This document shows, piece by piece, positions 697-29,313 of a stretch of 29,720 nucleotides of DNA. The stretch comes from a virus (taxonomy: Duplodnaviria; Caudoviricetes). Each line of letters begins with the position of its first letter. Within the stretch, counting starts at the first letter, position 1. The stretch spans positions 1 through 29,720 of IMG/VR virus record IMGVR_UViG_3300010052_000155; one strand, written 5' to 3'. The notes beneath the pieces were generated by a model. The model ran no database searches, was not told where the DNA came from, and was given only the letters and a program-made list of their open reading frames with translations. Position numbers and translations under genes: made by a program.

Positions 697-972
697 CGGC
701 GCTTCCGGTTCCGCCGGCGGAACGAAATGCAACGTGCGGTCCGTCCGGAACTGGCCGCAATCGACGCACTCGACGCGGTGCATCACGATCAGGTTGAACG
801 GGCAATCGCCGTGAAACTGAATCGTCGGTTGCGGTAGCTCGGTCATTTTGTCGTGAACCTTTCGGCGCGTGGACTTGCAGGCGGGGCATCGCGAGGGGAT
901 CCCCAAGCCTTTCCCGTAGTCTCGATTCGGGCCGCGGACTTTCGGCGGTGCGGGTTTTGCGGGCCGGTTCAT
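688..972 (-). CDS. Zn-ribbon protein (CxxC...CxxC), Ogr/Delta-like late activator candidate
   Basis: True start is probably ATG 972, overlapping the terL stop (ATGA). 94 aa with CPAC and CVDC pairs. The 216-aa version in the ORF track is an over-extension into terL. Confidence 0.7.
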   Translation of the reverse strand: MNRPAKPAPPKVRGPNRDYGKGLGIPSRCPACKSTRRKVHDKMTELPQPTIQFHGDCPFNLIVMHRVECVDCGQFRTDRTLHFVPPAEPEAPAA

Positions 973-3263
973 AGGTAGGAAACCCTTTCGCGTTGGCGCT
1001 TCTTCGGCGCGTTGACGGATCCGCCTGGGGCGGCGAGTCGGACGCCGCACACTGAGGCGGCGACAGCAGCTCCGACGATGCAATCGAAATAGTGGTTTTG
1101 ACGGGCGGGGATCTTTCGCCACACGTCGACGCGGCGGTTCCCGGTGACTGGCTCCGGCAGTTCGCTCGTCAAATGCTCGGACAGGAAGTCGTGCCGATCC
1201 TTCGCGTCGACGCCGTAGAACGACAGCGATCCCGGATCCCCGCGGTCGGTGAGAAGCCGGCGGGCGGTGAAAGACTTCCAGTGGTAAGTATCGAAAATCA
1301 GGTGCATTCCGGACCGTGAACGGCCGCGGATCAGCCATTCGTCGGGGGAAATGTGTTCGCCTGGCTTCGCGCGGTAGGCGGAAATCGGAACCTGATTCGC
1401 GTCGCAGGTCCGGCCGAACGACGGCATGAGAACGGTTCGGTGTTTCGACTCACGAATCGCCCGCCGGACAACGGCCGAATTGAATCCGCAGTCGATCAGG
1501 CAGCGTGTGAGCCGGAGTTTGACGCCGTCCTCGCGCTCGTAATCGGCGTCCGCGAGCTGCTCGGATAACGCCTGCAGGCCGGCGTAAATCGCCCCGTCGG
1601 GGCCGCGGCTCGGATAGTTCTCCTGCAGGGTGGGCCGGAAGTTCTTCTCGGTGAAATGGGCCCGGGGCGATTTCGGGAACGTGCCGTAGTCGATGACGGT
1701 CCCGGTGAAGTCGGGTTCCCACGCGCAGAGCATCCAGTAAAGGACTTTTTGGTGGACGTCGATGAAGCCTGTGACGTGCTGCGTCCCCTGGGGGAGAATG
1801 AGACGCTTGAAGCCGGAGATTTTCCGGGACAGCTTCGCGGCCTCGAGCTGCAGGCCGTCGCCCTCGCCTGGGGGGAGTGGATCGTTGTTGTATTCCGTGG
1901 CGAACCCTTCCGGGCCCATCTGGAAAAACAGGTTCATCGCGTGTTGGACCGGGCCCAATTCGTCGGCGTCGAATCGGTGCGGGTTCCCGACGACGGCGCC
2001 ATCGTCCATCGCCTCGCGGTTCGCCTTATAGAATCGGGTCGCCCGCTTGTACGGTTCCTCGCAATCGTCGTTGCGCAGATCTTCGCGGACGATCTCGAAG
2101 TATTGCTCCCAAAGCTCGAGGGCGGCTTTCGAGGGGAACGTCGGGAGCATCTTGCCGCGGCGTGACTTCCATTCCGGGTGGCGGTTCTTGTCGAGCAAAC
2201 GGTCGGCGAGGTCGCCCGCTTCAATGACGGTGCAGGCGCAGAGGGCGGACATGCGTTTGCCCTGGGGAGCGCAACCGAGAAGGTCGGCGGTCAGGATCTT
2301 CTCGCGGGTGTTGGTCTGATCGGGGGACGCTGCGGACTCGCGGGTTTGCGGGTCGTCGATCAGAACAAGCGACGGCCGGAGAACCTTCCCGCCTTTCTGC
2401 AGGTGCTTGGCTCCGCGGGTGGCGCTCATCAGTCCGCAAGAGGCGATGATCGCTCCGCTCGAGGGCGAACCGGGGATCGTCGGCAGGATCAGTTTGCGGC
2501 GGGTGAACCGGATCGCGGTTCTCAGGCCGTTGACCGTCTGACCTTTCGCCCGGTTGTGGATCCCTCCAAGAGCGCGGATCGCAAAGCAGACTTCCGGGAA
2601 ATCTTCGTTGAGCCGCTCATTGGTCTCGAGCGTGGTCACGAGGTCGGCGAGCGCGTCGTTTCCCTTCTCGTCGGTCGCGTGAACCAGCATCGAAAACGCG
2701 TGGTATCCGTACAGGGTCGCCCACACGAGCGCCCGTTCGGCGCGGACGGACTTTCCGTCGCCGCGGGGCTCCGCGAACGCCTGCAGGCTCCCCTGCAAAA
2801 CGGTTGTCTGGATCCCCTTGATCTCGGCTTCCTGGTCGGGCGAGAACGGCCGGAAGAACACGTCGGGGAAATACTCGAGATAAAACGCCTTCAGGTCGCG
2901 CCGGCATCGCTCGCGGCGTTCCGGATTGACGACGGGAGGGACCGGGCCGATCTCGCGGGCGGCCGACGATTGTTTCCTCGAGCGGTCCGCCATCCGTTGA
3001 CGGTGGCGATCGCCGGCGTCGGCGGCTTTGACCTGGGCCGCGTTGTTTTGCGATCGGGCGCGAGCGGAAACGATCACGTCGCGCAGCGTGGCGAGCTGGG
3101 CTTTCGTGGCCGTCGCCTGCAGTCGTTCGATATCGAACCCGGTCCCTGCCCGTTCGGCCGCCTTCTCGAGCGCTTTAGTTTGCGCTGGGTTTGCGGCTTC
3201 GCGCAGTGCGGTCCAGAACGCGGAGAACGTCCGCGAAGGGGTCGCCCGTTTTGGTTTCGCCAT
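969..3263 (-). CDS. terL: Terminase large subunit (lambda GpA-type)
   Basis: 764 aa; Walker A-like AEPRGDGKS, Walker B-like LVLIDDPQT, nuclease motif GFIDVHQK, C-terminal NHYFDC motif typical of GpA-family terminases. Confidence 0.93.
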   Translation of the reverse strand: MAKPKRATPSRTFSAFWTALREAANPAQTKALEKAAERAGTGFDIERLQATATKAQLATLRDVIVSARARSQNNAAQVKAADAGDRHRQRMADRSRKQSSAAREIGPVPPVVNPERRERCRRDLKAFYLEYFPDVFFRPFSPDQEAEIKGIQTTVLQGSLQAFAEPRGDGKSVRAERALVWATLYGYHAFSMLVHATDEKGNDALADLVTTLETNERLNEDFPEVCFAIRALGGIHNRAKGQTVNGLRTAIRFTRRKLILPTIPGSPSSGAIIASCGLMSATRGAKHLQKGGKVLRPSLVLIDDPQTRESAASPDQTNTREKILTADLLGCAPQGKRMSALCACTVIEAGDLADRLLDKNRHPEWKSRRGKMLPTFPSKAALELWEQYFEIVREDLRNDDCEEPYKRATRFYKANREAMDDGAVVGNPHRFDADELGPVQHAMNLFFQMGPEGFATEYNNDPLPPGEGDGLQLEAAKLSRKISGFKRLILPQGTQHVTGFIDVHQKVLYWMLCAWEPDFTGTVIDYGTFPKSPRAHFTEKNFRPTLQENYPSRGPDGAIYAGLQALSEQLADADYEREDGVKLRLTRCLIDCGFNSAVVRRAIRESKHRTVLMPSFGRTCDANQVPISAYRAKPGEHISPDEWLIRGRSRSGMHLIFDTYHWKSFTARRLLTDRGDPGSLSFYGVDAKDRHDFLSEHLTSELPEPVTGNRRVDVWRKIPARQNHYFDCIVGAAVAASVCGVRLAAPGGSVNAPKKRQRERVSYL

Positions 3264-3561
3264 CCGTGGCGGTATCCAGTTCCGTCAGCAGCTTCCGAAT
3301 CAACGGAACAAGCTGCATCTGTGCGCGGAATTCCGGGGCGGGCTCCTGCTTTCGCAAGACTCCCTTGTCGTCCCGGATCTCGCTGATTTGCCCGTTTTTA
3401 TTGAGTGAGTCCGTCACGCGAACGAACTGCAGAAACAACTGCGCGGCCTGGGCCGCGGCTGACTCTCCGCGAAACTCTTTCGAGACCTCGAGGGTCTCGA
3501 CGATCGCATCCCAAAACGGCCGCGCGTCTTTCGTCAGCCAATCAGGGGGTTCCCGCTTCAT
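3175..3561 (-). CDS. terS: Terminase small subunit (P27-family-like)
   Basis: Start ATG 3561 (ATGA overlap with the upstream gene), 128 aa; PPDWL..DARPFW..IV..L N-terminus, L.KNG middle and PAPE...Q...IRKLLTEL C-terminus resemble P27/HK97-type TerS; directly upstream of terL. Confidence 0.75.
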   Translation of the reverse strand: MKREPPDWLTKDARPFWDAIVETLEVSKEFRGESAAAQAAQLFLQFVRVTDSLNKNGQISEIRDDKGVLRKQEPAPEFRAQMQLVPLIRKLLTELDTATDGETKTGDPFADVLRVLDRTARSRKPSAN

Positions 3562-3773
3562 GCCGGCGGCTGTAAGACCTTTTCCGCGGGCTCGTCTAGT
3601 CGATCTTCCGGCGGAAGTTCGTCGGCGAACTTTTTGAGGACATCGGCGACGACGTCTTTCAGGTGTCGCCGGCGGGCGGCGGCGTGGCGATCCAAACGGA
3701 GCATCGTCGCGATCGGGAGAGTGATCGTGTACGGCTTCCGGGTTTTTGGGGTGACTGCTGTTGACGGCTGCAT
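3558..3773 (-). CDS. Ribbon-helix-helix DNA-binding protein
   Basis: 71 aa from ATG 3773; beta strand KPYTITLP then helices IATMLRLDRHAAA and LKDVVADVLKKF, the CopG/Arc pattern; coupled to terS. Confidence 0.65.
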   Translation of the reverse strand: MQPSTAVTPKTRKPYTITLPIATMLRLDRHAAARRRHLKDVVADVLKKFADELPPEDRLDEPAEKVLQPPA

Positions 3774-3896
3774 GACCTTGGCGCTCCAGTGGGTTTCGCA
3801 TGACCGGGGGCCGGCAGGGATGCTGCCTCTACAAGCGGGCCCGCACGGATGGCAAACGGGAACGCCTGTCTTTTCACGCATGACGCGTGCCGCTGA

Positions 3897-6595: not shown

Positions 6596-6985
6596 ATGGT
6601 TCCTCAACCCGGCGTGTGTCTCGATGCGGTCGTCGTCGACGTGATCGACGGCGACACGGTCCGCGTCGAAGTGAAACGGACGTTCGACGTTCGTCTCCTC
6701 GATTGCTGGTGTCCGGAGTCGCGCACGAAAGACGACGCCGAAAAGGCTCGAGGGCTCGCCGCGAAAGAGCGGACGAAAGCCCTCGTCGGCGGTCGCCTTG
6801 TTCGGGTTCTGATTCCCGCCGGCGATCCGACTCGGCTCCTCGACGTCACGACGTTCGGCCGGGTTCTCGGCCGGATCTTCGTCGACGGGAAGAACCTCGC
6901 GCAGCAGCTCGTCAAAGAAGGGCTCGCCGCGGTCTCGAAAGAGGATCAGGCGGCGATCTTCGGAAAGGGTCGTTACGACAAATGA
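6596..6985 (+). CDS. Thermonuclease (SNase-like) family nuclease
   Basis: VVDVIDGDTVRV, VRLLDCWCPE and FGRVLGRIFVDGKNLAQQLVKEGLA motifs; no signal peptide. Confidence 0.92.
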   Translation: MVPQPGVCLDAVVVDVIDGDTVRVEVKRTFDVRLLDCWCPESRTKDDAEKARGLAAKERTKALVGGRLVRVLIPAGDPTRLLDVTTFGRVLGRIFVDGKNLAQQLVKEGLAAVSKEDQAAIFGKGRYDK

Positions 6986-7242
6986 TCAAGGTTTCTCCGT
7001 TCCGGACGTCGCGGGATATCGCCCGGTCGGCCGGCATCAACCGGATCGAAACGGTCGGCCAACAAATCGCCGTTGCGCAGCTCGTTTTGTTGAGCGCGAC
7101 GGCGCCGGCGATCGCTCGCCGGCAACTCTCCGCAGCGTTCGAAGGATCCGCGCAGCCGCGGACCGTCGATCGTGAGTGTCCCGGGTGCGGGGCCGCGGTC
7201 CCCGACGGCCGCCCTGGTCGTCGCTGTCAGTCCTGTCGATAG
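6982..7242 (+). CDS. Small protein with HTH-like N-terminus and C-terminal Zn ribbon
   Basis: ATG 6982 (ATGA overlap), 86 aa; SRDIARSAGINRIETVGQ (HTH-like), CPGC and CQSC. Confidence 0.6.
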   Translation: MIKVSPFRTSRDIARSAGINRIETVGQQIAVAQLVLLSATAPAIARRQLSAAFEGSAQPRTVDRECPGCGAAVPDGRPGRRCQSCR

Positions 7243-7250
7243 GGTCATCC

Positions 7251-7490
7251 GTGAAAGCTCGTCTCATTCGCTGGTTTCTGACGGCCGTTCATTACTTCAT
7301 CCGGGCTCGCCTCGAGCGGATCCTTTGCGAAGCGGCGGCCGACGGGATCATCACGAAAGGCGACGTCGCCGAATTGTCGAACCGCCTGGATCCCGCGTGC
7401 CGGGCTCCGCGGCTCGTGTTCCGCCGGCTCTCCCCGGAAGAACTTCGGGGCCTCTTGAACTTTCCGCCGAAGAAGTTGGGGCCAAAATGA
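7251..7490 (+). CDS. Hypothetical protein (79 aa)
   Basis: GTG 7251 lies 8 nt after the previous stop; its TGA overlaps the next ATG. Confidence 0.55.
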   Translation: MKARLIRWFLTAVHYFIRARLERILCEAAADGIITKGDVAELSNRLDPACRAPRLVFRRLSPEELRGLLNFPPKKLGPK

Positions 7491-8074
7491 GTTCGCCAGA
7501 TGACGCGGGGCCCATCGTCCCGCGTCCCGAATGTCGATTCCCTCGAGCGGTCGATTCCGATGCGCAGCTCTCCGACGCTGTCGCGTGGGTCGCCTGGGCT
7601 AATGCTGAGGCCGAAGCGATCGACGCCGACGCGGAAAGGCGTTGCCAGACCATCAAGGCGGCGGCGGCCCGGCGTATCGCAAAATTGCGATCGGCCCGGA
7701 TCGACAATGCGGGCCTCCAGATTGATCGCTACGTCGTCCGGAATCGCCGGCGGCTCCTGGCCGACGGGAAGACGCTACGTCTCGCCGGCGGCGTGGTGCA
7801 GGTCCGCAGGGGCAACGAAGCGGTGGCGATCGTCGGCAAGGAATCGGAATCCGAAGTCGTCGACCGCATCGCGCAGGCAACGGGGGCCGATCGTGCGATT
7901 GCTGAAGCCCTCGAGGGCGCCGGCGCGGCGACCTGGCTCCGGGTGTCGCTGGCGCTCAATCGGGAACGAATCAAACGCGACGTGGGAAACGGTGTGATCG
8001 ACTCAAGCGCCCTCGCTACGCATCGACTGAAAATCGAGCGGCCCGAATCGATCCGCGTTTCCCGCGCCGCGTGA
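7487..8074 (+). CDS. gam: Mu Gam-like host-nuclease inhibitor (Ku-related DNA end-binding protein)
   Basis: ATG 7487, 195 aa; N-terminal coiled coil, Y...NR..LL.DGKTLRLAGGVVQVR (K-S/T-x-x-L-x-x-G-x-V-x-x-R of Gam) and LNRERIK near the C-terminus. Confidence 0.7.
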   Translation: MSSPDDAGPIVPRPECRFPRAVDSDAQLSDAVAWVAWANAEAEAIDADAERRCQTIKAAAARRIAKLRSARIDNAGLQIDRYVVRNRRRLLADGKTLRLAGGVVQVRRGNEAVAIVGKESESEVVDRIAQATGADRAIAEALEGAGAATWLRVSLALNRERIKRDVGNGVIDSSALATHRLKIERPESIRVSRAA

Positions 8075-9767: not shown

Positions 9768-10951
9768 AGAAACCCGCACTCGACAAAGCGCCTGAACACG
9801 TTCGCTCATTCTCCGGCCGCGGCCTTGCCGCTGCGAAGGAAGGCGAGAAACGCGTCGACCGCAAGGGGGGCGAGTTTTCCGCCGGCATCATCCGGGGCGT
9901 CTCGGTCATCACTCGAGGGGAAGCCCTGGGCCATGATGCCTGGATCGACTCGACGTTCCTCGATTCGGTCGCCGGCGCCATGGCGGCCAAGAAAAGCGGC
10001 ATCAAATCACGGTTCACGCATCCCGGCCTTTCGTCGGATGCGATGGGCTCCGCGCTCGGGTTCCTGAAGGATCCGCGGCGCGAAGGCGATCAGGTGTTCG
10101 CCGACCTGCATTTCACGGAAGCCTCTCACACGTCGCCGCGTGGCGACCTGGGCTCCTATGTGATGCAGCTCGCGGAAGAGACGCCGGAAGAGTTCGGATT
10201 GTCGATCGTGTTCGATGACGACCTCGAGGCGGAATCCGCTCACCTGAATGAGCATTCGGAAGAACTGACGGACACGGATCCCGACACGGGCCGCCGGCGG
10301 AAGCTGAAGCGGTTCAAGTCGCCGGATCCGGACAACGTCAAGAACCTGCAACACGTCCGGCTTTCCAGTCTGCGGGCCGGCGACGTCGTCGACACGCCGG
10401 CCGCCAACGCCGGCGGCATGTTCTCCGAAGATCGTCACGACGCGTTGATCATCGAAGCGGAACGGTCAATGGCGTACGCGCTGGGGCTCGAGGGGGCGAC
10501 CGCTCCCGACGGCTCGGCATTTTCGATTCATCCTGAACGGCTGAAGCGATTCGCGGAGCGTTTCCTCGAGTCGCGGGGCCTGACCATCGTCAAGAAAGAC
10601 GGGGCAAAAATGGCTGAGGGCAAGTCGCCTGCTGACGGTGGGGAACAGAACCCGCCGGCCGACGTCCGCGCGGAATTCGCGGCCAACCTGGACAAGTTCA
10701 CGAAACAGTTCGGCGCGCAGCTCGGAAGCGAATACCTCGCCGCCGGCCTGACCTTCGAAGCCTCGCTCGTGAAGTTCGCCGCGCATCAAGGCGAGAAGAT
10801 CGCCGCCGAAAAGAAGCGGGCCGACGACGCGGAAACCAAGCTGTCGGAAGTGAAGATCGGCGAATCGAAGCCGCTCCCCGCCGGCGACGGCGAGAAGGAA
10901 GCGCCGAAGTCGTTCTCGTCTCTGATCAAGGTTCCGACCGCGAAGAAGTAA
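9764..10951 (+). CDS. Prohead protease / scaffold fusion (putative)
   Basis: Lies between portal and capsid; IIRGVSVITRGEALGH, SRFTH, FGLSIVF and DVVDTPAAN fit a herpes/HK97-fold protease (His...Ser...PA); helical charged C-terminal scaffold-like region. Confidence 0.75.
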   Translation: MKKPALDKAPEHVRSFSGRGLAAAKEGEKRVDRKGGEFSAGIIRGVSVITRGEALGHDAWIDSTFLDSVAGAMAAKKSGIKSRFTHPGLSSDAMGSALGFLKDPRREGDQVFADLHFTEASHTSPRGDLGSYVMQLAEETPEEFGLSIVFDDDLEAESAHLNEHSEELTDTDPDTGRRRKLKRFKSPDPDNVKNLQHVRLSSLRAGDVVDTPAANAGGMFSEDRHDALIIEAERSMAYALGLEGATAPDGSAFSIHPERLKRFAERFLESRGLTIVKKDGAKMAEGKSPADGGEQNPPADVRAEFAANLDKFTKQFGAQLGSEYLAAGLTFEASLVKFAAHQGEKIAAEKKRADDAETKLSEVKIGESKPLPAGDGEKEAPKSFSSLIKVPTAKK

Positions 10952-10953
10952 GC

Positions 10954-11019
10954 CGACGCCTGGGAGGGCGTCGCGACTGAGTTTCCCCTGACCCGGGAAC
11001 ACGCTGCAAAGGATTGCAG
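10954..11019 (+). promoter_or_regulatory. CsrA-type GGA hairpins in the major capsid leader
   Basis: CGACGCC-TGGGAG-GGCGTCG (10954-10973) and CTGCA-AAGGAT-TGCAG (11004-11019), the latter containing the SD, 5 nt before ATG 11025. Confidence 0.7.
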
Positions 11020-11024
11020 GTCCA

Positions 11025-11963
11025 ATGGCTGACAGTTTTTCCACCCTGACCGATCTCGCGAAGATCAACGATACGTCGATCCGCGACCTCGAGGGCCTTT
11101 CCGACATTCTGAACGATGCTCCCCTCTTCGCGGCCCTGGCCGCGGCCGGCTCGAGCAACGGGACGAATCACCAGTACACGAAACAGACCGGGGCTCCGGC
11201 CGTCGGTTTCCGCGCCGCGAATGCCGGCGTCGACATGCTCAAGGCGACCGATACGGTCGTTTCGATGGATCTGAAGATCCTCGACGCGTCGTTCATGGTC
11301 GATATGGCGATCGCCGACGCTTACGGCGGCGGTCCGGAAAAGTGGCTCGCCCGCGAGGGTAAGCGCTTCCTGAAAGCCGCGTTCGCCGCCGGCGAAGGCG
11401 CCGTCCTGAACGGCGTCTCGGGAACCTTTGACGGGCTCCTGCAGGCGATGAACGACATCAGCCCGAACCCGGGCAATATCTACAACGCCGCCGGCGCCGC
11501 CGCGAACGCCGAATCGTCGATCTATCTGATCCGGACGAACGACGACGGCGAGGACGTCACGTTGATCGGCAAGGGTGAAGGCGGCGGAATCAAAATCGCC
11601 CTGGGCGAACCCGTCGTGACGGCCCGCGTCGATGCCAGCGGAAAGACGTTCCCCGCGTACTACGTCCCCTGCCAAGCCTGGATGGGCCTGCAGGTCGGCG
11701 GCCTGTATTCGGTGGTGCGTATCTGCAACATCGCCGCGGCAACGACCGTCAACGACGCGCTCATCTACGAAGCGCTCGCGCTGTTCCCGGCCAGCCGGCA
11801 GCCGAACCTGATCGTGATGAACCGTCCGAACCTGAAGAAGCTGCGAGCCAGCCGAACCGCGACCAACGCGACCGGCGCTCCGGCTCCGCGGCCGACGGAA
11901 GTCGAAGGCATTCCGATCATCGTGACCGACACGCTCGGGATGACCGAAGCCGTCGTCGCGTAA
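11025..11963 (+). CDS. Major capsid protein (epsilon15 gp7 / BPP-1-like)
   Basis: 312 aa; G..H.Y....G.P...FR..N.G, VD.A.AD, F.GL, SSIYL, S..RICNI and C-terminal GIPI...D....TEAV match my recollection of epsilon15 gp7. Confidence 0.85.
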   Translation: MADSFSTLTDLAKINDTSIRDLEGLSDILNDAPLFAALAAAGSSNGTNHQYTKQTGAPAVGFRAANAGVDMLKATDTVVSMDLKILDASFMVDMAIADAYGGGPEKWLAREGKRFLKAAFAAGEGAVLNGVSGTFDGLLQAMNDISPNPGNIYNAAGAAANAESSIYLIRTNDDGEDVTLIGKGEGGGIKIALGEPVVTARVDASGKTFPAYYVPCQAWMGLQVGGLYSVVRICNIAAATTVNDALIYEALALFPASRQPNLIVMNRPNLKKLRASRTATNATGAPAPRPTEVEGIPIIVTDTLGMTEAVVA

Positions 11964-11978
11964 TCCGTGTCCTCCCCT

Positions 11979-12034
11979 GATCGCCGGCGGCCTCGGTCCA
12001 ACCGGGTCGCCGCTGGCCGCCGGCGGTCGTTTTT
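11979..12034 (+). terminator. Intrinsic terminator-like hairpin after the capsid gene
   Basis: GATCGCCGGCGGCC ... GGCCGCCGGCGGTC followed by GTTTTT. Confidence 0.65.
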
Positions 12035-12046
12035 GAGGGTGTGACG

Positions 12047-12421
12047 ATGGATCGAAACAGAATGATCGCGGACCAGTTGAGGCGGGTCCGCAGAAAGTAC
12101 GGCGAGAAGCTCGAGTATCGGCGAGGCGATTTGTTTGCCCTGCCGTGCGTCGGGGTGATCGGCGCGACGATGCAGAAGGTTCTGACCGAAGCGGGAATCG
12201 TGACGGTCGGCCGGATGCGGGATTTCCTGATTGGTGTCGAGGAGCTGGTTTTCGAGGGCGATCGCGTGATCCCGGAAGCGGGGGACCGGATTTGTCGCCT
12301 CGAGCTGGACGGCTCGCCGGTGTTTGAAGCGTTGCCCGATGGCGACGACGTCTTTCACTACAGCGATCCGCTCGAGACTCAATTCCGGATCCATACGAAA
12401 GGGATCGGGTCGGACTCGTGA
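12047..12421 (+). CDS. Head-closure / head-tail adaptor (gpFII-like)
   Basis: Position after the capsid gene, ~124 aa, RDFLI...L......PEAGDRI and RIHTK beta-rich motifs. Confidence 0.65.
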   Translation: MDRNRMIADQLRRVRRKYGEKLEYRRGDLFALPCVGVIGATMQKVLTEAGIVTVGRMRDFLIGVEELVFEGDRVIPEAGDRICRLELDGSPVFEALPDGDDVFHYSDPLETQFRIHTKGIGSDS

Positions 12422-12906
12422 GCGCCGAATTCGTCGAACTGCAGGCGGCAATCGTGGCGGATCTCGCCGGCCGGGTTGATTCGTTCAACTTGACCGGGTG
12501 GGTTCCGAAGCGGGCGTATTTGCCAAAGTTCGACCTCGGCACTCTCCGCAACCTGCAGGTGGTGACAACGCCGGCGTCTCGAGTGAAGTCGGACACGAAC
12601 CGCGGGGTTCGCGGCCGGCGGCTCGAGGCTTACGTCGGCGTCCTCAAGAAACTCGACGCGACGTCTTCCGATCAGGTTTCGCCGCCGGCGAATCTGAGCG
12701 AGCTGGACGGACTGATCGAGTTCGTCGAACGCCTGGACGCCTTGTTTCAGCCTCCGAACCCGTCGGCGTCCGGTCCCTACAGGATCGGGGCGGACGGGAA
12801 ATTCCGGTGCGTCGAGTCGGCGATTGTGCCGCTCTACGACCTGGAACATATGCAGACGCTTCGACAGTTCTCCAGCGTGAACAAGGTCACGTTTGAGGTG
12901 TTTTGA
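12418..12906 (+). CDS. Tail terminator / neck protein (putative)
   Basis: 162 aa in the connector cluster; alternating alpha/beta pattern like gpU; GTGA overlap. Confidence 0.55.
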   Translation: MSAEFVELQAAIVADLAGRVDSFNLTGWVPKRAYLPKFDLGTLRNLQVVTTPASRVKSDTNRGVRGRRLEAYVGVLKKLDATSSDQVSPPANLSELDGLIEFVERLDALFQPPNPSASGPYRIGADGKFRCVESAIVPLYDLEHMQTLRQFSSVNKVTFEVF

Positions 12907-13448
12907 TGGGTCGCGATCGCAACGAACGCGGCTCCGTCAGTGGGTTAAGAGTCAGCCGACGCGACGTCAAATTCGACGGCGTTCTCGTGCTGAACTACGC
13001 CCGATTTTTGGCGGACGACGCCAAGAAACGGGCGGCGAACTATGTCCGCGTGATTGCCCGACGCAGCTTGAAAAAGCCGCGCCGGAAGAGTCTCGCGGAA
13101 ATGCCGCCAGTCGAGCGGCAAGCGTTCCTCGCCAAGCAACGGGCGGCGCGTCGGAAAGGGCTTCCCGCTCCGAAACGGCCGTTCGCAAACGCGAAGCCTG
13201 GAAAGCCTCCTTACAACGACAACGACATCATCCGTCGGCTTCTCGAGTTTGGTGAGACGCCGAACGGCGATTTTGTGATCGGTCCGCGGATCTTCAAACG
13301 CGGAACGGTCTCGCTCCTGGAACACGGGGGCAAGGCGAGACTGCCGGGCTACGGGGGGGAACCGGTGGAAATGGAGTTTCGGGGAAACCCGTTCATGCGT
13401 CCGGCACTGGAAGCCGCGGCGCCAAAGATCCCGGATCTCTTTAGATGA
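12906..13448 (+). CDS. Tail completion protein (HK97 gp10-like)
   Basis: Basic protein with LLEHGG and C-terminal NPFMRPALE motif. Confidence 0.7.
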   Translation: MGRDRNERGSVSGLRVSRRDVKFDGVLVLNYARFLADDAKKRAANYVRVIARRSLKKPRRKSLAEMPPVERQAFLAKQRAARRKGLPAPKRPFANAKPGKPPYNDNDIIRRLLEFGETPNGDFVIGPRIFKRGTVSLLEHGGKARLPGYGGEPVEMEFRGNPFMRPALEAAAPKIPDLFR

Positions 13449-24174: not shown

Positions 24175-24402
24175 TCATGCGGCCGGCGTGGGTGTGACCG
24201 GCAACGTCGGTCGCGGTTCCCTGGGCTCCTTCTTCGTGGCCTCGGGTCTCTCGATGGCGAAAGACGGCGGGGCGGCAATCCCAAGCCTCGCCGCGCTCTT
24301 ACCCACCCTGATCATGTCGATATTGATGATGGTCCCGGCGGGGATCGCCTCTTTCGCAATGATCTGGGTTCGCTCGCCCTTCTCACGTTTCAAAACAAGC
24401 AT
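24175..24402 (-). CDS. csrA: Carbon storage regulator CsrA/RsmA-family RNA-binding protein
   Basis: 75 aa from ATG 24402 (SD GGAGG): MLVLKREKGER...ARLGIAAPPSFAIERPE matches MLxLxRxxGE...VRxGIxAPxxVxxxRxE, keeping the R44-equivalent Arg. Confidence 0.85.
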   Translation of the reverse strand: MLVLKREKGERTQIIAKEAIPAGTIINIDMIRVGKSAARLGIAAPPSFAIERPEATKKEPREPRPTLPVTPTPAA

Positions 24403-24499
24403 CTTGCATGACCTCCATGGAACACGCCGCCGGCGGCTCGGCCGCGGCAACGTGGGAGTTTCAGAGCGCTCCGCGCCCGTCAAGGTTCCTTCCTCAGAC

Positions 24500-25740: not shown

Positions 25741-26325
25741 TCAGCCGTGGCGGGAATACGCGGCCTTCTCATTTGAGAACGGCGCGTAGTTTTGCCGGTG
25801 TTCGGGTTCGATGTACGGGACGCCGATCGCTTCGAAATACGATCGTTCCGTCGGCGTGGGGATCGGCTCGCCGTTCTTCCAAAGCTGGCCGCCGGCGACC
25901 TTGAATCCCCTGGGCATTTTTCCGCCCTGGTCGACCGTCGACGCCATTTCCCGGGAAAAGTCTTCGGGGCCGGTTCGAATCAAAAGCATCAACCCGGGCG
26001 ACGCCGGCGGCATGACGATAAACAGGTCGATCGGCAGGCCGTTCATCACGAACCGCTTATAGCGCGGTCCGTTGCGGCGGGTTTGCTGGTCATACTTGAA
26101 CTTGTCGCCGACGATCGCTTTCAACCTGGGCTCGAGGAGCGATCGTTGCTCACCGTTGTCGAATAAGGCGTCGGCCGGCGCGAGTTTCGGAATGCAAACG
26201 ATCTCCGCGTCGCTCACGGTCGGCTTTCGCCGGCGGATCGATCCGGCGATCCGGACGGATTCGCAGGCGTCCGCGATGTGCGCGGCGAACCGGACGGCGA
26301 TCGATTCGGCGTCGTACAGGTTCAT
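25741..26325 (-). CDS. Minimal family-X DNA polymerase (palm + thumb only)
   Basis: 194 aa from ATG 26325; IAGSIRRRKPTVSDAEIV, PIDLF, LIRTGPEDF and TERSYFEAIGVPYIEPEHR are hallmark PolX motifs. Confidence 0.88.
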   Translation of the reverse strand: MNLYDAESIAVRFAAHIADACESVRIAGSIRRRKPTVSDAEIVCIPKLAPADALFDNGEQRSLLEPRLKAIVGDKFKYDQQTRRNGPRYKRFVMNGLPIDLFIVMPPASPGLMLLIRTGPEDFSREMASTVDQGGKMPRGFKVAGGQLWKNGEPIPTPTERSYFEAIGVPYIEPEHRQNYAPFSNEKAAYSRHG

Positions 26326-26675
26326 GGGTAAAAACTCGCGGTGGTCAGGGTTTCGGTTCGCCATGGGAACTGGCGCCGGTATTCGCGGTCGGCCCGATCG
26401 ACGGCGGTTTCGAGGGTCTCCGCGGTCGCTTCCTCAATCTGCTCGAGCAGCTCCGCGACGGCGTCGGCGGCTTGCTCCAGGTCGCCGCCGGCAGTCCAAA
26501 GCTCGCGGACAAAGCTCGCGACGTGGTTTTTCGTGTAATCCTTCGACGGCTCGAGGTTCGACAGGATCTCAGCAAGCTCGGCCAGCAGGCGCGGAACCTC
26601 GTCGATCACCAATTTCCGAACGGCGTTCCGGCGGAACCGGCGAGCCATCAGATCGATAGGGCAGCCGTGGGCCAT
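26322..26675 (-). CDS. Helical hypothetical protein (117 aa)
   Basis: ATG 26675 overlapping the upstream stop; ATGA overlap with the PolX gene. Confidence 0.65.
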   Translation of the reverse strand: MAHGCPIDLMARRFRRNAVRKLVIDEVPRLLAELAEILSNLEPSKDYTKNHVASFVRELWTAGGDLEQAADAVAELLEQIEEATAETLETAVDRADREYRRQFPWRTETLTTASFYP

Positions 26676-26992: not shown

Positions 26993-27325
26993 TCAACTCT
27001 CCCTCTCGAGGCGGATCGGATGGGTTCGCAGGCTGTCCTCGAGCTGATCCATTTCGGCCCGGGAGAAACCGCTTTTGAAGTAGATCGCCGGCGTCTGCGC
27101 AACCTCGATTTCGTGGGGCTCGAGCGTGTATCGCCGTCCGGCCGGTGTGAGGATCTCCGCAATCGCTCCGAACAAGCTGACCGCCAGAATGAAACAGGCG
27201 GTCGCCGTGTGCGGGTGGCCGGCGAGAATGAAGTCGAAAGCGGTCGACGCGGCCCATCCGGCGCTAAGGCCAAACAGGGCAATGCGGACGGCTTGGAAAC
27301 GACCGATGTAGGGAACGACTTTCAT
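26993..27325 (-). CDS. Two-TM membrane protein (110 aa)
   Basis: ATG 27325 with GAGGG SD; hydrophobic segments IALFGLSAGWAASTAFDFIL and ACFILAVSLFGAIAEIL. Confidence 0.65.
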   Translation of the reverse strand: MKVVPYIGRFQAVRIALFGLSAGWAASTAFDFILAGHPHTATACFILAVSLFGAIAEILTPAGRRYTLEPHEIEVAQTPAIYFKSGFSRAEMDQLEDSLRTHPIRLERES

Positions 27326-27340
27326 CGGTGGGCCCTCATC

Positions 27341-27394
27341 AAACGAAAACGGCCGGCGGCGCCGTGGAACATCCACGACAGAAACCGCCGGCCG
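27341..27394 (-). terminator. Intrinsic terminator-like hairpin after the recombinase
   Basis: Minus strand CGGCCGGCGG...CGTGGA-TGT-TCCACG...CCGCCGGCCG followed by TTTTCGTTT. Confidence 0.7.
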
Positions 27395-27415
27395 ACATCA
27401 CGATTGCCTCAGCGT

Positions 27416-28480
27416 TCAATCGGGCATCTGATCGGCCATCGGAAACGAATCGATCAGCGCGCAGACCGTTCTGGCGGTCGCCTTGTAGTGCTGCGCGTTC
27501 ACGTCCCGGGCGGCGTGCCCTAAGACGTAGCGACCGACGTCGGAATTCGAACCCGGCAATGCGTCCCATTCGACGTTTGCCGTCTTTCGAAGCTCTTGAA
27601 ACGTGTAGGGCTGACGAATCCCGGCCGCGGCCTGGATCGCATAAAATTCGCGATACCAGTCCCGTTGACAGGTCGCGAACGGCAAGAGCTGATCCTTTCC
27701 GTTCGGAACCTTTCGGCCTTCTATCTGCTTTAGGTGGAAGTGCAGACCTTTCGTCAGCGGAAGCGCGATCGGGTCCGTTTTGAACCCCTCCGTTTTCTCC
27801 GGAACGAACGTCAGCCATCCCCATTGGTGGCTGATCTTCAGCTCTCCGAGCGGACATTCCGGCTCGAACGTCACACACTCCCGCGGCATCAAGAGCCAGT
27901 CGTTCCGACGCGGACCGTAGGTCAATCCCATCAGAAGCGCCGTTCGCCATGTGAGCGGCGGCGGCGTGCGGGTATGCCTGGGCCGTTTCGCGACGCGGCA
28001 CTCGCGGTAGATCCGTTCGATCACCTCGAGCGGTACGACTCGCTTCCGCGGCTTCGAATCGTTCTCCGGCCTGCGTTCGGCCGAAACCCATTCGTCGATG
28101 ATCTGACGTCCGCGCTTGTTGTGCGGTCCCTTCGGTCCGCAGCGTTTCAAGATCGCCTCGACGTAGATCGCGTTTTTGTTGACCGTTCGCCCGCGCTTTC
28201 CTGAAGCGGCGAGCCAGTCGGCGAAGTCCTCGAGCTGCTCGTCGGTGATCTGCGCGATCTGCCCGGGATTGTTCGACCGGGAAAGCCATCGCTCCCAGTG
28301 TTTCAACATCCCGCGATACTCGGCGATCGTCGACTTTTTGCAGCGTTGTCTTTCCTGATCCCGCTTCAGGACATTCTCGTAAGCCTCTCGAAGCGTCCAT
28401 CGCCGCTGCTGTTCGCGGCTTGTGCGTGGCGCTTCGGAATACCCTTCGGCTGTGACCAGCCGGAACGGCGTCGCAATCAT
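27416..28480 (-). CDS. int: Tyrosine recombinase / integrase
   Basis: 354 aa; SAM-like core-binding domain (STIAEY, RTVNKN), YGPRRND (Arg I), PEKT (Lys), FQELRKT (H-x-x-R with His replaced by Gln), LGH and HY nucleophile. Confidence 0.9.
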   Translation of the reverse strand: MIATPFRLVTAEGYSEAPRTSREQQRRWTLREAYENVLKRDQERQRCKKSTIAEYRGMLKHWERWLSRSNNPGQIAQITDEQLEDFADWLAASGKRGRTVNKNAIYVEAILKRCGPKGPHNKRGRQIIDEWVSAERRPENDSKPRKRVVPLEVIERIYRECRVAKRPRHTRTPPPLTWRTALLMGLTYGPRRNDWLLMPRECVTFEPECPLGELKISHQWGWLTFVPEKTEGFKTDPIALPLTKGLHFHLKQIEGRKVPNGKDQLLPFATCQRDWYREFYAIQAAAGIRQPYTFQELRKTANVEWDALPGSNSDVGRYVLGHAARDVNAQHYKATARTVCALIDSFPMADQMPD

Positions 28481-28563
28481 CTAGGTCGGCCTTTCGAATC
28501 TCCCGCGGCGAGTGTTTCCCGCTCCTCTCTCGCCTCGGCCCGTCGCGAAAACCGTCCATGCAA
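28477..28563 (-). CDS. Putative 28-aa leader peptide coupled to the integrase
   Basis: AGGAGG (28569-28574) 5 nt before TTG 28563; its TGA overlaps the integrase ATG (ATGA). Confidence 0.4.
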   Translation of the reverse strand: MHGRFSRRAEAREERETLAAGDSKGRPR

Positions 28564-29030
28564 GTAAGCCTCCTGGCTCTTAATACTTTCCCCACGATTG
28601 GGGACGCGGCTCCCGTATCCGAGACGGGTTTTCTGAGCCGACAAAAACAACTCTGCGTAAGTGACTCTTGTTCCGACTCGTGAAGGGCGTGGGATCGTGC
28701 GGACGCGATCGAAGCAAGCGGGCGGGCAACCGCTTTCGCCTCGTCTCGCAATCCGCATCGATCCCGCGCTCCCTCGAGGGAAACCCCTCATCCGTGAAAA
28801 CGACCTGCTACCGGGCGTTGCATCGATCAACGGACGAACGGGGGCATCGGCAGAGCGCCGCGGTACTGGCGGCCTCGAGGGTGAGGGTCGCGGGGCAGTC
28901 GACTAGGGCAATGCCGACACGTCGCTCCGCGCTTCACTCTGCCGATCAGCGTTTCGGCAGGCATCCCGTGGGATTCGGGACGGCTTGAGAGAACGCCGGC
29001 CGGTCGTCAACGCGACAACCGACGGGCGTG
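28564..29030 (-). ncRNA. Long structured 5' leader / possible ncRNA upstream of the integrase
   Basis: No convincing CDS; at least six stem-loops readable by eye, including a ~100-nt imperfect hairpin at 28677-28778. Confidence 0.5.
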
Positions 29031-29069
29031 AGAATACAACGATCGTTGGGTCGGTCAAGCGATCGTTGG
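29031..29069 (-). promoter_or_regulatory. Sigma70-like early promoter with overlapping palindromic operators
   Basis: TTGACC (29053-29058) - 16 nt - TATTCT (29031-29036); perfect palindrome CAACGATCGTTG (29037-29048) in the spacer and a near copy 20 bp away (29057-29068). Confidence 0.75.
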
Positions 29070-29076
29070 AAAATTT

Positions 29077-29313
29077 TTAGCCGGCGAGGGCGGTCGCCTT
29101 CCGACGAACAACAGTCAGTTTCGGCTCGAGCTGCAGGGCCGCAAAGAATCGCTCCATGACGTCGGGCCCGGCGTCGCGGCGGCCGTTCAGGTACTCAGTG
29201 ACGTATTGCGGCGACTTCTCCATCGCTCGCGCCAGCTCGGTCCGCGTCATGTGCCGCGCCTTCAGCTCGCGGTTGACGATTTCGAGAAACTGCTTCTGAA
29301 GAATCAATTTCAT
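29077..29313 (-). CDS. XRE-family HTH regulator (repressor / Cro-like)
   Basis: 78 aa from ATG 29313 (SD GGAGG); MTRTELARAMEKSPQYVTEYLNGRR. Confidence 0.88.
   Translation of the reverse strand: MKLILQKQFLEIVNRELKARHMTRTELARAMEKSPQYVTEYLNGRRDAGPDVMERFFAALQLEPKLTVVRRKATALAG

Follow-up and report, generated by a model that had tools for sequence, protein, structure and literature searches.

A stop-free frame that begins in the leader of a Planctomycetota prophage integrase and may serve as a translated bypass into the lytic genes

What does a leader of some 550 nt do between a repressor-controlled promoter and the integrase gene of a prophage? The window analysed here, a stretch of 29,720 bases, is an IMG/VR provirus record that carries siphovirus head and tail genes. 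On its minus strand follow, in this order, a DUF4236 gene, an HTH repressor gene, the promoter, the leader (28481-29030), the tyrosine integrase gene and early genes including csrA (Table 1). A sequence-only reading of the window had described the leader as a highly structured RNA in the only large non-coding gap of the genome, and had proposed that it is a cis-regulatory leader, a CsrB-like sponge, an antiterminator RNA or a recombinase-associated RNA. The promoter that it had placed upstream of the leader is indeed found there, sigma70-like and accompanied by operator-like repeats, and relatives have TTGAC-type hexamers at a comparable distance. What the sequence-only reading missed is the main feature of the locus, an overlapping stop-free frame that starts inside the leader.

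Table 1. Features of the leader, the integrase gene and the early operon, with their positions in the window.
Feature	Position	Strand	Basis or remark
HTH (XRE-type) repressor gene	29077..29313	-	Pfam HTH_3, E 1.7e-8; directly upstream of the promoter
Operator-like sites at the promoter	palindromic 29037-29048; second copy 29056-29068	-	
Sigma70-like promoter TTGACC-16-TATTCT	29058-29031	-	directly downstream of the repressor gene
First leader hairpin	28994..29029	-	MFE
60-nt tandem-hairpin motif (CAAG, hairpin, one C, hairpin)	28935..28993	-	covariation with L103, L104 and L106
Rod, 38-bp imperfect, no U-tract behind	28677..28778	-	in MFE; -62 kcal
Predicted CsrA sites: GGA hairpin loop over the SD, and CATGGA overlapping ATG 28559	28553..28578	-	unpaired probability 1.0 and 0.77
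406-codon ORF, -1 frame relative to the integrase	27339..28559	-	covers the whole integrase; frame open from 28787
Tyrosine integrase, 354 aa	27416..28480	-	Pfam SAM-like and PHROG integrase; without arm-binding domain
Intrinsic-terminator-like hairpin and U-tract	27394-27350; U-tract 27349-27342	-	-36.1 kcal, z -6.6
First early gene past the terminator-like hairpin	26993..27325	-	ATG 16 nt downstream of the first stop-codon base of the -1 ORF
Phage-encoded CsrA	24175..24456	-	Pfam CsrA, E 6e-9; downstream, same early operon

The integrase has the core-binding domain and the catalytic R-K-H-R-H/W-Y set of the tyrosine recombinases, with the first H of HxxR replaced by Q; R191, K229, R298, H322 and Y332 are conserved in the alignment. 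Its profile matches lambda-type integrase chains in the PDB weakly. The named relatives are from Planctomycetota, with profile matches in 12 of 401 genomes of the phylum and in 78 of 398 genomes of one family. A tblastn search of 50,697 phage records gave no match, and scans of viral contigs with the integrase, with alignment A1 and with P0002 found no relative. A same-strand tRNA gene lies at most about 1.5 kb upstream of the integrase in 21 of the 43 loci scanned, as expected of integrases that adjoin an attachment site; homologues of the repressor also adjoin tRNA genes and integrases in the relatives.

The structure attributed to the leader is real overall but not uniform. Compared with 100 shuffled sequences, none of which folded as well, the minus strand of 28481-29030 reaches -255.5 kcal/mol (z -4.19), but the signal is confined to two domains, the stretch 28930-29030 (z -4.1) and the rod (z -7.0), which had been predicted and is present in the minimum free energy fold. 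The rest of the leader is near chance (z -0.5 for 28780-28930 and -0.4 for 28481-28676). Many relatives also have a long rod at about this position; these rods could not be aligned, and the scan of minimum free energy folds did not always choose them. Among the relatives, neither the rod nor the middle of the window leader has an alignable homologue. Between the region upstream of the integrase and the relatives, blastn gave a single match (162 nt, in L028), which except for a 24-nt hairpin consists of the repressor gene; the contigs compared showed no variant in the leader. No terminator-like site was found on the minus strand within the leader. The Rfam search called for by the sequence-only reading gave no match at gathering score in the window and none at E values up to 10 in 28300-29200. 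The distance from promoter to integrase is 500-580 nt in 22 of 36 loci, with promoters picked by eye.

Of the roles proposed for the leader, that of a cis-regulatory element fits best, and antitermination could still apply to the 60-nt tandem-hairpin motif. A recombinase-associated RNA finds no support, as several leader families precede related integrases, and these align neither with each other nor with the leader of the window. The two GGA loops that had been picked out fared differently: AGCC-AGGA-GGCT is predicted to be fully unpaired in its loop, but in the ensemble the GGA at 28793 takes part in a helix (unpaired probability 0.0) and hence forms no loop. The former loop had been placed over a Shine-Dalgarno (SD) sequence, and AGGAGG is present there (28574-28569), but it lies about 90 nt from the recombinase start and 9 nt before another start codon, ATG 28559.

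This ATG opens a long reading frame in the -1 register relative to the integrase. The last 79 nt of the leader are the beginning of that frame, so that the 3' end of the presumed non-coding gap is open. With AGGAGG before this ATG, these 79 nt are likely to be translated. In the window the frame has no stop at any of 68 sites at risk, against 1-10 such stops in each of the 20 other window genes tested (20/20). Our model of expected stops overshoots about twofold, with non-overlapped genes showing about half the expected number, and after a rough correction for this the window alone gives p ~0.003. Because of the overshoot we prefer the empirical contrast, and the case rests on the relatives.

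Counted over 300 codons, the -1 frame has no stop in 39 of 78 Planctomycetota integrase loci and 1-16 stops in the other 39. The 78 remain from 85 loci after removal of duplicates and broken genes (L007, L022, L069, L018, L040, L070, L071); near-identical pairs are still among the 39 stop-free loci, and the closest integrases, P0002-P0004 (52-66% identity), lie outside these DNA-level counts. Sorted by label, 39 of 42 loci of the leader or tRNA type are stop-free and none of 36 others, but the labels were not drawn blind, and the unlabelled 39/39 split is therefore the one to rely on. It is not a matter of base composition: at 45% GC, L009 has 0 of 56 risk sites stopped where 28 were expected, the stops in the +1 frame of stop-free integrases stay normal (2-17), and the other window genes do carry stops. 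On a quick tree the trait requires about 5 label changes, compared with 26 for shuffled labels. The stop-free integrases are mostly only 20-35% identical to that of the window, with synonymous sites saturated. Three of four held-out loci found via the repressor are stop-free (L104, L105, L107), and the fourth, L106, has five stops; in L113 the frame is open after one early stop. A promoter and leader are present with a closed -1 frame in L006, L056 and L106, and only some of the loci yielded a -1 start preceded by an SD sequence. Selection has acted against stops in this frame. One relative (L139:648-3399) has two tandem integrases, each under its own stop-free -1 ORF and chained to a small gene between them.

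Selection keeps the frame open and does not act on its peptide. The fourfold degenerate sites of the integrase are the first positions of the -1 frame, and they diverge by 0.27-0.29 at 96% identity, as freely as in pairs without the overlap (0.09-0.31 at 94-97%). Over codons 1-44, which precede the integrase, substitutions are spread evenly across the three codon positions. In none of eight close pairs is the frame shifted on balance in this part (a ninth pair, a distant one, has a net change of -9), whereas in all seven pairs compared the non-coding leader differs by 2-8 small indels. The -1 ORFs are 406-700 codons long; their N-terminal parts align within close groups, but neither length nor C-terminus is conserved. 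No Pfam family matches the peptide, which is absent from the protein collection and has no homologue there, and its Atlas score of 0.80 is what a real gene yields when read in the wrong frame. A conventional overlapping gene would show purifying selection on its peptide, and none was found.

The downstream end of the frame is just as distinctive. In the window a terminator-like hairpin begins 22 nt after the integrase stop codon, inside the last codons of the -1 ORF, and its U-tract abuts the -1 stop. In 37 of 38 loci, two of which are cut by contig ends, the -1 frame continues for 62-797 nt past the integrase stop; in the exception, L060, it ends 37 nt before that stop. A hairpin of -10 kcal or lower with a U-tract lies between both stops in 31 of 37 loci, but in only 24 of 124 control windows of equal size inside the integrase. 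The six loci without a qualifying hairpin are L011, L014, L036, L037, the truncated L046 and L060. At 15 of 34 loci the -1 stop and the following start codon overlap, compared with 45 of 253 for other nearby stops, and the next start lies within -11 to +25 nt of the -1 stop in 25 of 34 (122 of 253 for the other stops); there is no direct overlap in 19 of the 34, the window included. An earlier control for this coupling (238/671) was discarded, as it had scored internal Met codons of the integrase.

We consider it probable that the leader of this integrase-first early operon starts a stop-free -1 frame that acts as a translated bypass across the terminator behind the integrase and into the lytic genes, gated by the leader and by CsrA. 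A ribosome covers about 15 nt ahead of itself. Ribosomes in the integrase frame would stop 22 nt before the hairpin and, because their cover falls short, leave it folded; such a transcript would yield integrase only. Ribosomes in the -1 frame would cross the integrase start, melt the hairpin and reinitiate at the next gene, so that transcription would continue into the lytic genes. The choice of start codon on one mRNA would thus be a switch between integration and the lytic course. CsrA and the folding of the leader would set which start is used, and the effect of CsrA could go in either direction. The 60-nt motif and the rod would likely act in pausing, antitermination or processing. Both translation of the -1 frame and readthrough at the hairpin are inferred.

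A link to CsrA through predicted target sites on the mRNA, and not through a sponge, is plausible. CsrA binds an A(N)GGA hairpin motif, as described in the available part of PMC10729762, and the GGA loop over the SD sequence and the CATGGA on ATG 28559 in the window match this motif. The sequence CAYGGA occurs before the integrase start at 0.31-0.37 per 100 nt in 35 stop-free loci, compared with 0.02-0.07 in other integrases; in most relatives these sites are nearer the integrase start than the -1 start. A csrA gene lies downstream in the window and in the extended regions of 4 of 7 relatives (89 of 104 called ORFs scanned).

Other readings of the same data have to be weighed. The -1 frame might be translated in order to shield the RNA from Rho, to occlude initiation at the integrase or to deliver ribosomes to the next gene, with the hairpin as a stabiliser or processing site instead of a switchable terminator. 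Such uses would account for the stop-free frame and its coupling equally well, and for the stop-free loci that have no good hairpin, but the U-tract hairpin between both stops in 31/37 loci and the overhang of 62-797 nt in 37/38 make them unlikely. We regard it as very unlikely that the -1 ORF encodes a functional, probably disordered protein (a directionality factor, an antirepressor or a Kil-like toxin), either complete or fused to the integrase by frameshifting. Open frames of 406-700 codons whose N-terminal parts align in close groups would suit a protein; the lack of codon-position bias outside the overlap, the unsuppressed fourfold sites of the integrase, the variable lengths and C-termini, the absence of a Pfam match or database homologue and the wrong-frame value of the Atlas score (0.80) would not.

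The main function could also lie in the RNA itself, in which case the leader would be processed into a separate RNA species (antisense, antiterminator or recombinase-binding) and the open frame would be secondary. The recurrent promoter-to-integrase distance (by eye) agrees with this, as do the covariation of the 60-nt motif and the strong covariation of the loop-junction pairing in relatives (97% paired, 5/7 compensated). We nevertheless find this reading distinctly improbable: the window shows no significant C4-like pairing (p 0.39), no second target was found in 20 of 20 relatives by exact or one-mismatch search, the central part of the window leader is no more stable than shuffled sequence, and leader families are interchangeable before related integrases. 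A CsrB-like sponge, suggested by the phage-encoded CsrA and by one GGA in a hairpin loop, we hold to be extremely improbable. The leader is not enriched in GGA, with 15 copies against a shuffled mean of 10.7 (sd 2.8), and only two of the 15 have an unpaired probability above 0.7; CsrB, according to the accessible text of PMC10729762, has 22 hairpin copies.

The translated bypass has its closest parallel in phage P4. In the parts of PMC10111431 and PMC4825925 that are available, translation of the long, upstream-starting eta frame is described as preventing termination, so that downstream genes are reached; the former also describes Kil as a truncated form of Eta, and Eta as crossing an RNA element. 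The P4 eta/kil and CI RNA region and the present locus share a long frame kept open across a termination site, here terminator-like, and many relatives carry a CI-like pairing of a loop and junction with the 5' end of the leader, although the window leader does not. The differences are that here the frame lies out of register over an entire 354-aa enzyme, that its peptide is unconstrained, and that the barrier is a hairpin after the integrase. No downstream target of the seqC type was found (0/20), and P0155 has no Pfam match and no homology to Eta (a Bro-network protein). The locus would work like P4 eta and is not a member of that system. In phage lambda, sib retroregulation of int degrades the RNA from its 3' end. 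The problem solved is the same, namely to uncouple the integrase from the lytic early transcript, but the means proposed here is frame choice on one mRNA. Like leader-peptide attenuators and upstream-ORF coupling, the bypass would be indifferent to the peptide made, but its ORF runs to 400-700 codons and lies nested across another gene. In IsrK/orf45-anrP of Gifsy-1, as far as the available text of PMC4825925 describes it, peptide-indifferent translation of an ORF controls a downstream gene. Our search of the literature (mostly open-access, without supplements, and including the accessible part of PMC12191101) found no description of the arrangement reported here.

Beyond the window, and with slightly less than even confidence, we suggest that these Planctomycetota prophages decide between integration and lysis by frame choice. 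A nested, peptide-indifferent ORF of 400-700 codons would be the antitermination device, gated by interchangeable leaders (C4-like address loops in most, the new tandem-hairpin motif and a protein repressor in the window) and by feedback from phage CsrA. To our knowledge, bacteria and their phages seldom have long same-strand overlaps that cover a whole enzyme gene, and gene-calling programs reject such frames; at loci of this kind the longer frame can be annotated instead of the integrase, as a naive caller did in our analysis. If true, the proposal would add a new way of deciding between lysis and lysogeny and a clear instance of translation serving as a signal. The locus also contributes RNA motifs that are missing from the catalogues, from a phylum whose phages have received little study.

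One such motif is the 60-nt tandem hairpin, which the window shares with L103, L104 and L106, in all cases behind the same repressor and promoter type. Four of its 11 pairs change on both sides and 97.7% of cells are paired, in a structure that was drawn from the very sequences scored for covariation. The motif model R1 found two new promoter-proximal copies (L112 and L113) in 151 genomes, one of which precedes an integrase. Nine matches weaker than E 1e-5 that we inspected in these genomes looked like chance, and a match in L114 covers the first hairpin only. Searches with two leader patterns gave 12 matches that were unrelated by eye and without an integrase, and no match, respectively. In predicted folds the second hairpin of the motif competes with a longer helix, 28930-28946/28846-28862, which displaces it as the transcript grows. 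The put element of phage HK022 consists of two adjacent stem-loops one base apart shortly after an early promoter (PMC9378689, available part). The window motif has the same layout but is shorter, and the two were compared by layout only. In L103 the long leader after the 60-nt motif contains a stretch resembling a tRNA T-arm (~2310-2345); no integrase follows.

Most other relatives have a different leader, with bipartite pairing of the C4/CI type. Across 15 aligned sequences 97% of its long-range helix is paired, and compensation is seen at 5 of 7 pairs; a second group of six sequences is 89% paired with 4 of 6 compensated. In the relatives the leader folds into a three-way junction, two short stretches of which are complementary to its promoter-proximal part, and so resembles the c4 antisense RNA with icd-ant of phages P1 and P7. 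These leaders come from a different phylum, showed no second target and give no Rfam C4 match. A downstream target, at a translation start or of the seqC type, was found in none of 20 relatives when exact and one-mismatch complements were searched. Rfam C4 (RF01695) had no match at E values up to 1 in 12 relatives and none in the window, and Rfam as a whole returned nothing from these 12 beyond tRNAs and sub-threshold noise. C4 appears as a table row in the available part of PMC2864571. A C4-like pairing considered for the window (+21/+31 with +209/+223) is attributable to chance (p 0.39).

The uncatalogued C4/CI-like leaders form three sequence families, represented by L041:890-1129, L009:2784-3023 (minus strand) and L021:2751-2990 (minus strand), with about 22 other loci. 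Near the 5' end lie two short address stretches, whose pairing partners are a loop and a junction strand some 110-130 nt downstream. Address and partner stretches change together even between close relatives (L041/L042, L052/L053), as expected of immunity determinants. In L044, L045 and L047, whose integrases have a closed -1 frame, a terminator-like hairpin about 450-650 nt upstream of the integrase has a loop that is complementary, by eye, to the 5' end of the transcript.

Several further features of these prophages were observed. Tandem duplicated HTH repressor genes lie upstream of the promoter in L023, L107 and L108, and tRNA genes lie downstream of the integrase, within the early operon, in L013 (2762-2838), L017 (1057-1128) and L032 (231-305). 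About 6 kb downstream of its integrase, L134 has two TIR-domain genes, one with pentapeptide repeats (10384-13008, minus strand). The early operon of the window encodes a stand-alone protein of the PolX/DNA polymerase beta thumb type (25741-26364, minus strand). The window's terminase genes (969-3881, minus strand) are oriented opposite to the head and tail genes, and an SNase-like nuclease and a Mu Gam-like protein are encoded between the terminase and portal modules (6596-8074, plus strand).
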